Positions 3,143 through 4,250 of a stretch of 4,250 bases of DNA are shown here, piece after piece. The translations under genes and the position numbers were made by a program. The first letter of the stretch is position 1, and each line of letters opens with the position of its first letter. The notes below the pieces were generated by a model. The model ran no database searches, was not told the DNA's origin, and saw only the letters and a list, made by a program, of their open reading frames with translations. Source of the stretch: a virus (Duplodnaviria > Heunggongvirae > Uroviricota > Caudoviricetes); the IMG/VR virus record IMGVR_UViG_2529292977_000006. One strand, given 5' to 3'.

Positions 3143-3700
3143 ATGACCACTATTACCAAAGATCGACTGCTGACAATCCAGCATTGGCGCGAAACATACG
3201 GACCGGGTAGCAACGTTGTGCTTCCAGCAGAAGAAGCGGAAGAGCTGGCACGGATTGCGCTGGCATCACTGGCAGCAGTATCGGATGAACGAGCAGCCTA
3301 TGAATTATTTATGGAGAAGCGTTTCGGAGAATCTGTAGATCGCCGCAGAGCAAAAAATGGCGATAGAGATTACATGGTATGGGATATGGCGCTTGGCTGG
3401 ATTATCTGGTGTCACCGCGCCGCCATGCTTCAGGCTGGAAACTTTCGGGAAAATAAGGGTTCGTCAACCAATAATTTTCGGATAATCTCGGAAACGTCAA
3501 CCAACTCTCCGGCAATCCCTGATGAGGTGTTGTCCGCAATCCTGAAGGTCGCCAGGCTTCGTGCAGATTTCGATGCTTCTGAAGTGGACAGGCGAGGTAT
3601 CGGTAGTTGTCTGGATGAGGCCGAGCAAGAACTTATCGTTACCATTAACGAATACGCCAGTCAGATCGCAGTAGAAGCGACACAGGGGGAGAACCAATGA
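3143..3700 (+). CDS. Hypothetical protein (185 aa); N-terminus paralogous to the 2206..2523 product
   Basis: ATG 3143 lies 2 nt after the upstream stop, with AAGGTGA (3129-3135) upstream; stop TGA 3698-3700. Shares the N-terminal pattern MT(T)ITK-x-R...YG-x-G...AL with the gene at 2206. Confidence 0.6.
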   Translation: MTTITKDRLLTIQHWRETYGPGSNVVLPAEEAEELARIALASLAAVSDERAAYELFMEKRFGESVDRRRAKNGDRDYMVWDMALGWIIWCHRAAMLQAGNFRENKGSSTNNFRIISETSTNSPAIPDEVLSAILKVARLRADFDASEVDRRGIGSCLDEAEQELIVTINEYASQIAVEATQGENQ

Positions 3701-3774
3701 GCCGGCCAGATGCATTTGCAGGCGTTGCTATAGCTATTGCTTTTCTAGTATATGTTATTTGTCGGTGGGGGTAA
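3697..3774 (+). CDS. Candidate 25-aa hydrophobic micropeptide (MSRPDAFAGVAIAIAFLVYVICRWG)
   Basis: ATG 3697 overlaps the upstream stop (ATGA), with GGGGGA (3685-3690) at 6 nt; stop TAA 3772-3774. One short hydrophobic helix. Too short for the ORF track; the call rests only on coupling geometry, the SD and hydrophobicity. Confidence 0.3.
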   Translation: MSRPDAFAGVAIAIAFLVYVICRWG

Positions 3775-3809
3775 AAACGTTCGCCGGGATTCACACCAAG
3801 GGAGGGAAT

Positions 3810-3914
3810 ATGTCGGATGATATTTCACTGGTAATGGAAGGCGCTCTGGCTGTTATTGCTGTTGTGGGTGTTTACTGCCTGGTTGTGTTTTTGATGGAGC
3901 GCCTGGGGAACTGA
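3810..3914 (+). CDS. Candidate 34-aa small membrane peptide (MSDDISLVMEGALAVIAVVGVYCLVVFLMERLGN)
   Basis: ATG 3810 is preceded by a strong SD, AAGGGAGGG (3798-3806); stop TGA 3912-3914. One TM-like helix flanked by acidic N-terminal and charged C-terminal residues. Not in the ORF track because of its length. Confidence 0.45.
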   Translation: MSDDISLVMEGALAVIAVVGVYCLVVFLMERLGN

Positions 3915-3924
3915 ATTCATTCCG

Positions 3925-3940
3925 TATGGGAATTCCCATA
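3925..3940. promoter_or_regulatory. 16-bp perfect palindrome TATGGGAATTCCCATA (candidate operator or weak hairpin)
   Basis: The sequence equals its own reverse complement. It lies 11 nt after the stop of the 34-aa ORF and about 15 nt upstream of the candidate hok promoter -35. There is no following T-tract, so a classical intrinsic terminator is unlikely. Confidence 0.3.
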
Positions 3941-3954
3941 TCGGGCAAAACGGT

Positions 3955-3982
3955 TTGCTGTAAAGCGAGAGTTAAGTAGAAT
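3955..3982 (+). promoter_or_regulatory. Candidate sigma70 promoter for the hok transcript
   Basis: -35 TTGCTG (3955-3960), 16-bp spacer, -10 TAGAAT (3977-3982). This would give a leader of about 170 nt before the hok ATG, in line with the long structured leaders of hok mRNAs. Confidence 0.3.
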
Positions 3983-4000
3983 TGCTGCGGGTGCTTGAGG

Positions 4001-4036
4001 CTGTCTGCCTCGGGCATGCCACCGTAAGGCAGACAG
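4001..4036 (+). other. Stable hairpin in the presumed hok mRNA leader (10-bp perfect stem, 16-nt loop)
   Basis: CTGTCTGCCT (4001-4010) is the exact reverse complement of AGGCAGACAG (4027-4036). It is not followed by a U-tract. Confidence 0.35.
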
Positions 4037-4157
4037 AGAAAAGCCCCAGTTAACATTACGCGTCCTGCAAGACGCTTAACATTAATCTGAGGCCCAATCT
4101 ATGCTTCACAAACGTAGGTTAGCCTCTTACGCGCCGAAAGGCAAGGAGAAGCAGGTT

Positions 4158-4250
4158 ATGAAGCAGCAAAAGGCGATGTTAATCGCCCTGATCGTCATCT
4201 GTTTAACCGTCATAGTGACGGCACTGGTAACGAGGAAAGACCTCTGCGAG
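4158..4250 (+). CDS. hok: Hok-family type I toxin (HokD/RelF-like), 3'-truncated by the window edge
   Basis: ATG 4158 is preceded by AAGGAGAAG (4142-4150). The translation MKQQKAMLIALIVICLTVIVTALVTRKDLCE matches the N-terminus of E. coli HokD/RelF as I remember it, including the TM helix and the conserved Cys. An in-frame ATG at 4101 with its own SD lies upstream. Confidence 0.75.
   Translation, partial: MKQQKAMLIALIVICLTVIVTALVTRKDLCE

Follow-up and report, generated by a model that had tools for sequence, protein, structure and literature searches.

Introduction

Type I toxins such as Hok/Gef, TisB, ZorO, DinQ, ShoB, Ibs and Ldr are small hydrophobic peptides with a single helix in the inner membrane, and they are often borne by prophages. 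Escherichia coli also has small regulatory inner-membrane proteins (MgrB, AcrZ, MgtS, PmrR, KdpF, CydX and SgrT), which have fewer than 50 amino acids (aa), one helix, conserved short caps and small-residue spacing within the helix. Here we analyse two tandem open reading frames (ORFs) that share features with both groups, ORF1 and ORF2, located in a 4,250-nucleotide (nt) stretch of the Caudoviricetes record IMGVR_UViG_2529292977_000006, referred to below as the window. This stretch belongs to a Qin-like lambdoid prophage of E. coli O157:H7. An initial annotation, made from the sequence alone, had described two unannotated hydrophobic micropeptide ORFs of 25 and 34 aa upstream of a hok gene. 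Both ORFs were found at the positions it gave, and the downstream gene is hokD. The features of the two ORFs are as follows.

3685..3691, + strand: Shine-Dalgarno (SD) site of ORF1, GGGGGAG, within the last codons of the upstream gene and five nt 5' of the ATG
3697..3774, + strand: ORF1, 25 aa, MSRPDAFAGVAIAIAFLVYVICRWG, ATG at 3697 and TAA at 3772-3774
3798..3806, + strand: SD site of ORF2, AAGGGAGGG, with GGAGG four nt 5' of the ATG, in unstructured RNA
3810..3914, + strand: ORF2, 34 aa, MSDDISLVMEGALAVIAVVGVYCLVVFLMERLGN, ATG at 3810 and TGA at 3912-3914, with a single predicted helix

With the MgrB-type proteins, whose kind of behaviour is expected here, the two ORFs share a length below 50 aa, a single predicted helix with small-residue spacing, and short conserved caps. 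Unlike those proteins, which are encoded by chromosomal core genes, ORF1 and ORF2 are phage-borne and have no homology to them; the match to the KdpF model was far below its cut-off (14.7 versus 26.85 bits). They resemble the type I toxins in being small, hydrophobic and prophage-borne, and HokD is encoded by the next gene. They differ from these toxins in having no toxin-model match, conserved antisense RNA or closed ribosome-binding site, and also in that ORF1 is coupled to its upstream gene and a paralogue of ORF2 is highly translated in healthy cells. No Pfam, NCBIfam, PHROG or PADLOC model matched either ORF. As set out below, sequence comparison gives good support for ORF1 as a member of a conserved, unnamed micropeptide family that annotation has missed, and ORF2 is an already known hypothetical small gene. 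Both families are narrow: they occur in the lambdoid phages of Escherichia and of Shigella and have left traces in Salmonella.

The ORF1 family

The ATG of ORF1 (3697-3699) overlaps the TGA (3698-3700) of a 185-aa upstream ORF in the arrangement ATGA. This overlap and the G-rich SD site had been pointed out in the initial annotation, as had the near-consensus SD site of ORF2, and all three were confirmed. The single transmembrane helix predicted for each peptide also agrees with our hydropathy analysis, in which each has one hydrophobic stretch of 17 aa. The mean Kyte-Doolittle value of this stretch is 2.66 for ORF1 and 2.95 for ORF2, compared with 3.22 for Hok. ATG-initiated ORFs of 20-60 aa that combine an SD-like motif with a hydrophobic stretch occur exactly twice in the window, compared with an average of 0.01 over 200 shuffles.

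ORF1 is a variant of a 27-aa family with the pattern M-x-W-P-E/D-A-F...Y-x-I-C-R-W-G, from which it differs by W3R and by an in-frame deletion of two codons after A8. The window copy therefore has 25 codons where the family has 27. Its N-terminal cap is M-S-R-P-D-A, in which P, D and A are kept and R stands for W3; W3 was fixed by our search pattern, so its invariance elsewhere is partly assumed. The C-terminal Y-x-I-C-R-W-G followed immediately by a stop is present in ORF1, as are the ATGA overlap and an SD site within the 5-8 nt upstream spacing of the family. The unnamed 27-aa peptide is found after L0139 in 933W/Sp5 and after Ea22-, EaA- and DUF551-type genes, and it shares with ORF1 the ATGA coupling, the SD position and the location at the end of a gene block. 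The residues common to both are P4, an acidic position 5, A6, a conserved glycine, Y and the C-terminal I-C-R-W-G with its stop.

To limit retrieval bias, we either scored only codons left free by the search pattern or anchored each ORF on the other. In 135 loci retrieved via ORF2 alone, ORF1 was open in approximately 124, with 20 DNA haplotypes that include an in-frame 6-nt indel. The commonest haplotypes encode 27 aa, e.g. MIWPEAFAITGVAIAIDFLVYVICRWG, and are separated from the window copy by this indel. The ATGA overlap was retained behind three different upstream genes. The 25-aa group comprised four DNA haplotypes (26/135 copies) with a synonymous CCA to CCC change and only rare replacements.

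A second set, obtained by a fixed-gap scan of IMG/VR together with the loci already collected, comprised 204 copies with 56 haplotypes and 37 peptide variants, all of 27 aa. ATGA was present in 204/204 copies and a stop directly followed G27 in 203/204; neither the fourth base of ATGA nor the stop codon was imposed by the search pattern. A GGAGG-like site stood in the corresponding place in the majority of the 44 distinct upstream contexts, and the commonest contexts all had GGAGG. Over the 17 codons left free by the search pattern, the ratio of nonsynonymous to synonymous differences per site (pN/pS) was 0.43 in frame, compared with 0.72 and 1.46 out of frame, and the most diverged pair had a pS of 0.74 and a pN of 0.29. 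Replacements within the helix exchanged one hydrophobic residue for another, while the ends W-P-E/D-A and C-R-W-G were retained.

Diverged homologues lie directly 5' of hokW in 933W (MTWPEAFANVGTVMAVVLVVYSICRWR) and in pPE4. Further homologues close Ea22-, EaA- or DUF551-type genes near xis and int in Stx2a_WGPS2, TH18, PhiR12_1, BP-4795 and POCJ13. Those in 933W, pPE4, BP-4795, Stx2a_WGPS2, PhiR12_1 and TH18 keep the 27 codons, the ATGA and the end motifs, with synonymous sites nearly saturated. In total, the family was found after Ea22, EaA, DUF551 or L0139-type genes in at least 94 phage records, including 933W. The variable-gap pattern used on genome contigs was too loose, and among the loci that it retrieved a real ORF1 was present only in one Shigella flexneri and one E. 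coli record; the species range is therefore poorly sampled.

The 'unannotated' status claimed for the two ORFs holds only for ORF1. The small ORF is without annotation in all seven phage records inspected (933W, pPE4, Stx2a_WGPS2, TH18, PhiR12_1, BP-4795 and POCJ13). The family is present in the well-studied Shiga toxin (Stx) phages 933W, VT2-Sakai and BP-4795 and is missing from the annotation of every record inspected, making ORF1 a clear case of a conserved, apparently translationally coupled micropeptide gene skipped by standard pipelines. ATGA, 27 codons and WPEAF...CRWG provide a simple signature by which the family could be annotated. A few GenBank records name family members 'bacteriophage protein' or 'Prophage protein'.

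Four-base ATGA overlaps with an SD site inside the upstream gene are typical of termination-reinitiation pairs. Unlike the usual pairs, the ORF1-type gene is attached to at least five unrelated upstream C-termini, and the coupled unit appears to move as a cassette. The unrelated upstream proteins share the ending ...Q-E-V-N/R-Q/R because the SD site of ORF1 (CAGGAGGTG) is embedded there, so that the final 15-20 nt of the preceding gene appear to be part of the mobile unit. Fusion of ORF1 to the upstream protein by a -1 frameshift was rejected, as no slippery heptamer precedes the stop.

Some NCBI entries label the 27-aa peptide a 'DUF551 domain-containing protein', a name that was probably transferred from the neighbouring gene. 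Clusters at 90% identity group the 27- and 34-aa peptides with DUF551 proteins and with a 789-aa xanthine dehydrogenase, none of which contains them. These cluster look-ups hinted that ORF1 might be the C-terminal tail of DUF551 proteins; the sequences have no such tail, and clusters are unreliable for such short peptides. A separate observation concerns the record PP818812.1 ('Actinobacillus phage vB_Apl-pPE4', L149 in our set), whose ORF1-hok region has 94.8% DNA identity to an E. coli prophage. This is unexpected for a Pasteurellaceae phage, and the host label or source purity of the record may be wrong.

ORF2 and its paralogues

ORF2 was not unannotated: it is identical to RefSeq WP_001278460.1, and alleles (WP_001278460/450/454/459) are annotated by the Prokaryotic Genome Annotation Pipeline (PGAP) in every RefSeq locus opened. 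It has at least approximately 85% full-length identity to the family sequence MSDDISL[AV]MEGALAV[IV]AVVGVYCLVVFLM[DE]RLGN, and, with its own SD site, it is located 3' of the ORF1 stop and 5' of the hok promoter. Searched exhaustively with HMMER, ORF2 had only six matches among 1.84 billion representatives, all of them close relatives, and an ORF2 pattern scan of genome contigs gave 0 matches. The ORF1 and ORF2 peptide strings did not occur in the full texts searched or in two other sets of supplements. K-12 YdaF, considered as a candidate for a 51-aa TTG-extended form of ORF2, was ruled out; it is a DUF1391 protein at a different place.

The paralogue of ORF2 in Sakai prophage Sp6 is ECs_5710, also called XECs145. 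Both are 34 aa long, occupy the same slot between ORF1 and hok and are alleles with 2-3 substitutions (two residues differ between the Sp6 paralogue and ORF2). The published XECs145 is drawn 57 nt longer, from an upstream ATA start; otherwise ORF2 is another allele. Ribosome profiling (RIBOseq) of XECs145 in LB medium gave a transcriptome value of 79.1 reads per kilobase per million (RPKM), a translatome RPKM of 346.1, a ribosome coverage value (RCV) of 4.35 and a coverage of 0.99; the corresponding transcriptome RPKM, translatome RPKM and RCV in brain heart infusion (BHI) were 121.3, 150.1 and 1.14 (Hücker et al. 2017, PMC5597208). The same study predicted XECs145 to be an inner-membrane protein with one helix.

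Conservation of ORF2 was determined in 127 loci anchored only on the 3' end of ORF1. ORF2 was intact in 122 of them; four had lost the last two residues and one was out of frame. The pN/pS was 0.21 in frame, compared with 0.79 and 1.53 in the other frames, and the variable sites were distributed over the three codon positions as 3, 4 and 10. The reading frames of both ORFs are thus conserved across related prophages, a check suggested in the initial annotation.

A diverged sister clade of ORF2 (type B, as opposed to type A, which includes the window copy) was found by tblastn in phages mEp460_ev081, Evi and Tritos, and many more copies came from a metagenome scan. The type B peptide has 29 aa (MLVLKCALAIAAVMAIYCLAVVLMDRLSD), an AGGAGG site and an invariant GTG start, and it ends 7-8 nt before the hok -35. 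Identity between the two types is approximately 54% for the protein and 64% for the DNA. Type B ORF2 is preceded by a conserved stretch of approximately 200 nt that holds no annotated gene (L145 ~2300-2495, and the same span in L146), and the nearest upstream gene is on the opposite strand. Type B ORF2 must therefore be served by a promoter of its own and a long leader, for which Rfam gave no match.

Expression signals

Both ribosome-binding regions were less structured than shuffled controls. The initial annotation had suggested that hexamers inside ORF1 could drive ORF2 independently. These hexamers, TTGCTA (3725) and TATATG (3749) with an 18-nt spacing, scored 8/12, without the T at the last -10 position; they were not called by the promoter scan and were no better than chance, so this suggestion is not upheld. 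On the minus strand, the 3' end of ORF1 contains a promoter-like site (3775 to 3747; TTTACC, 17 nt, TATACT) with a score of 9/12, whose hexamers were not kept in diverged homologues of ORF1. The interval 3697-3914 held no terminator-like site. The Rfam search gave no RNA over the same interval; the only significant family in the window was sok, and a second entry, ceN48, was non-significant (E-value 0.99, 20.9 bits versus a gathering score of 70).

Linkage to hok

In 933W and pPE4, the ORF1 stop (TAAAAACGGTTTGC...) runs directly into the hok promoter. The same junction is split by approximately 173 nt in the window, and ORF2 therefore looks like a small inserted cassette. Two features describe this segment.

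3780..3952, + strand: apparent insertion of ~173 nt relative to phage 933W, containing ORF2 and the palindrome, with AAAACG on both sides (3774-3779 and 3947-3952)
3922..3944, no strand assigned: near-perfect palindrome centred on GAATTC, forming a 9-bp hairpin without a U-tract in RNA

From its sequence, the AAAACG-flanked segment looks like a small insertion or a microhomology junction. The palindrome is a perfect 22-mer, CGATATGGGAATTCCCATATCG, in most copies and has one base missing in the window; L002, L148 and L004 also carry it. Its RNA forms the 9-bp hairpin followed by a second small hairpin (-15.6 kcal/mol, z -2.2). The palindrome persists where hok is gone and also where ORF2 is mostly deleted, as in the PPompW phages, which retain only the last ORF2 codons, the palindrome and hok. 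Lying immediately 5' of the hok -35, it could bind a protein or act as an element that sets an RNA end or affects RNA stability.

Type A ORF2 was followed by hok in 119/123 loci and, in a second set, in all 140 evaluable loci; type B was followed by hok in 50/61. In the four type A and 11 type B loci without hok, the break lies at the hok -35/-10. Downstream of 188 ORF1 copies we found ORF2 then hok in 87, hok directly in 41, hok further on in 8, ORF2 without hok in 4 and neither in 48, so that 136 copies lie within ~500 nt of hok. Linkage to hok is thus frequent but not obligatory, and for ORF1 the association with the end of the Ea22/DUF551-type block is closer than that with hok.

Function of the two peptides

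The initial annotation had credited both ORFs with the marks of real genes, and this is borne out by conserved frames, in-frame indels, retained start and stop codons, retained SD sites, a surplus of synonymous changes and the profiled paralogue of ORF2. We consider it reasonably likely that both are genuine translated genes for single-pass inner-membrane micropeptides with an accessory rather than a toxic function, and analogy suggests that they act as modulators. Ribosomes that finish the upstream Ea22/DUF551-type gene at its TGA would restart on the overlapping ORF1 ATG by termination-reinitiation, aided by the SD site in the last codons of that gene. The ORF1 product would form a membrane helix of ~19-22 residues. 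In the standard family member this helix would be bracketed by interfacial W3 and W26 and by the conserved N-terminal WPEAF and C-terminal CRWG caps, and the spacing of the two tryptophans, 22 residues apart, would fit interfacial anchors of a single membrane helix. ORF2 would be translated from its own strong, unstructured ribosome-binding site, even in uninduced lysogens, and together with the palindrome it may form a small cassette, placed where the early gene block ends and before the hok/sok locus, which is transcribed separately. Both peptides may be moron-like products that bind a larger host or phage membrane protein and modulate it by helix packing.

Several observations weigh against this interpretation. 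Broken copies of ORF1 exist: codon 3 is changed from TGG to TAG in two independent backgrounds (L026 and Shigella phage POCJ13, L155 1501-1584), L098 has a 1-nt deletion with a frameshift, and codon 26 is changed from TGG to TGA in eight IMG/VR copies. In L005 (NZ_CP069707.1, ~1451-2500), the IS5-family element ISKpn26 is inserted at the CTAG of ORF1 and the first two-thirds of the ORF are lost, with ORF2 and hokD intact. The broken copies indicate that the genes are dispensable. The window ORF1 itself may be impaired, as it departs from the family at the otherwise invariant W3 and is two residues shorter. It is also shorter than the 30-aa cut-off of the Sakai ribosome-profiling study and its translation is not shown directly, while the RIBOseq reads of the ORF2 paralogue are possibly shared among 2-3 paralogues per genome. 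Retrieval by pattern and by tblastn favours conserved peptides and inflates purifying selection at fixed positions, and many of the sampled copies are recent relatives whose diversity is redundant. The modulator mechanism is drawn by analogy, with a hypothetical partner protein.

Among the alternatives, it is unlikely that the window copies are relics, i.e. that the families may be real while the 25-aa ORF1 is inactive and the ORFs persist only since the prophage segment is young. The loss of W3 and of two helix residues would fit such decay, as would the broken copies. The exact 25-aa peptide was never called as a gene among ~15 billion proteins, and nearly all copies of the window haplotype are O157-lineage sequences at least 99% identical. 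However, the two codons were lost without a shift of frame, ORF1 has kept its ATGA, SD site, C-terminal CRWG and stop, its hydrophobic stretch has if anything gained in strength, and the 25-aa group, with its four haplotypes, shows a synonymous change and only rare replacements; nor does this explanation apply to ORF2. A membrane-targeting module with Hok had also been proposed in the initial annotation, and the frequent position near hok agrees with it, but both peptides also occur without hok. In its fuller form, ORF2 and perhaps ORF1 would work with Hok by damping it, potentiating it or timing Hok-assisted phage release, and ORF2-hok/sok would be a three-part module. The linkage described above speaks for this: it holds for type B as well as type A despite only ~54% identity between the clades, and 136/188 ORF1 copies lie close to hok. 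The hokW-sokW locus is moreover known to aid the release of phage Sp5 (PMC8621323). We nevertheless regard the three-part module as rather improbable, given the hok-free copies (4 type A, 11 type B, 48 ORF1 with neither and 4 ORF1 with ORF2 only), the presence of hok without intact ORF1 or ORF2 in PPompW and most plasmid copies, recombination breakpoints exactly between ORF2 and the hok -35, which mark separate modules, and hok's own promoter and RNA control.

The initial annotation had further suggested type I toxins or holins, and the evidence speaks against both. That one or both ORFs are new pore-forming or depolarising toxins, restrained by an unrecognised antisense or trans-acting RNA, is distinctly improbable. 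In size, hydrophobicity and single helix they do resemble TisB, ZorO, DinQ, ShoB and Hok, as judged by hydropathy; their neighbour is a bona fide type I system, the minus-strand site inside ORF1 scores 9/12, and type B ORF2 has its long conserved leader without an annotated gene. A type I toxin, however, should be paired with a cognate small RNA, antisense or divergent, that has its promoter and terminator, and sok starts only at 3989; over 3697-3914 there is neither an Rfam RNA nor a terminator-like site, and the minus-strand hexamers are not kept in diverged homologues. It should also have a structured leader that hides the ribosome-binding site, whereas the sites of ORF1 and ORF2 are open. 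No toxin family model matches either peptide. The coupling of ORF1 to an ordinary gene in all 204 copies, and the position of the ORF2 paralogue among the better-translated small ORFs in healthy LB cultures (RCV 4.35), are the opposite of the type I toxin pattern, so the peptides are probably not membrane-killing toxins. They are not holins either, given a size too low for a holin and a position 5' of Q, well away from the lysis genes. Holins belong to a lysis cassette, next to the endolysin and downstream of Q, whereas ORF1 and ORF2 are upstream of hok, DUF968, rusA and Q, with the Q gene starting ~2.3 kb downstream of ORF2. Holins also match a model or have 60-150 aa with a charged C-terminal tail, and peptides of 25 and 34 aa without a PHROG or Pfam match do not.

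Within the preferred reading of ORF1 and ORF2 as accessory membrane micropeptides, it is a long shot that the WPEAF...CRWG peptide and the ORF2 peptide are phage helix-binding modulators of a specific target, either Hok itself, whereby a type I toxin system would gain control at the level of the protein, or an inner-membrane protein of the host with control over the timing of lysis, over lysogeny or over superinfection. If they were, a gene left unannotated in Stx phages such as 933W/Sp5 would genuinely contribute to phage release or host physiology. Tuning of Hok, lysis or a host membrane protein by either peptide would bear on Stx-phage release; if there is no such tuning, the annotation is still corrected and the suggestion of a new toxin removed.

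Genomic context

The region surrounding the two ORFs contains the following further features.

3143..3700, + strand: upstream 185-aa gene, whose TGA stop overlaps the ORF1 start
3955..3982, + strand: inferred hok promoter, TTGCTG, 16 nt, TAGAAT; right-hand limit of the small-ORF region
3989..4163, + strand: hok mRNA leader and sok region, Rfam RF01794, 114.9 bits
4158..4250, + strand: hokD coding sequence, cut off by the window end

The hok promoter was assigned from an alignment and from the homologous TTGGCG-17-TAGAAT called in L145; a mok-like ORF starts at 4101. Given the hok leader and sok at 3989-4163, ORF1 and ORF2 precede the hok transcript and belong to the early phage transcript. The 751 nt surrounding ORF1 and ORF2 are 100% identical to many chromosomes of Shiga toxin-producing E. 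coli (STEC). A 291-nt query segment, at a coverage of at least 80%, was found in ~660 of 5,426 complete E. coli genomes, mostly of Shiga-toxin-producing strains.

Annotated relatives indicate that the gene for replication protein P is followed by DUF1627, by several small genes and by an Ea22-like gene. These are followed by a 63-aa gene, the 185-aa gene, ORF1, ORF2 and hokD with its sok/mok control region, and a rem-like gene, DUF968, rusA and Q lie beyond the window, 3' of hokD. The 185-aa protein is a mosaic. Its C-terminal third differs from DUF551 proteins and has no Pfam match, and its N-terminal and central part (...AMLQAGNFRENK.SSTNNFR.ISETST...) resembles 185-aa DUF551 proteins, e.g. 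P0054. In strain SS52, a regular DUF551 gene occupies the slot of the 185-aa gene.

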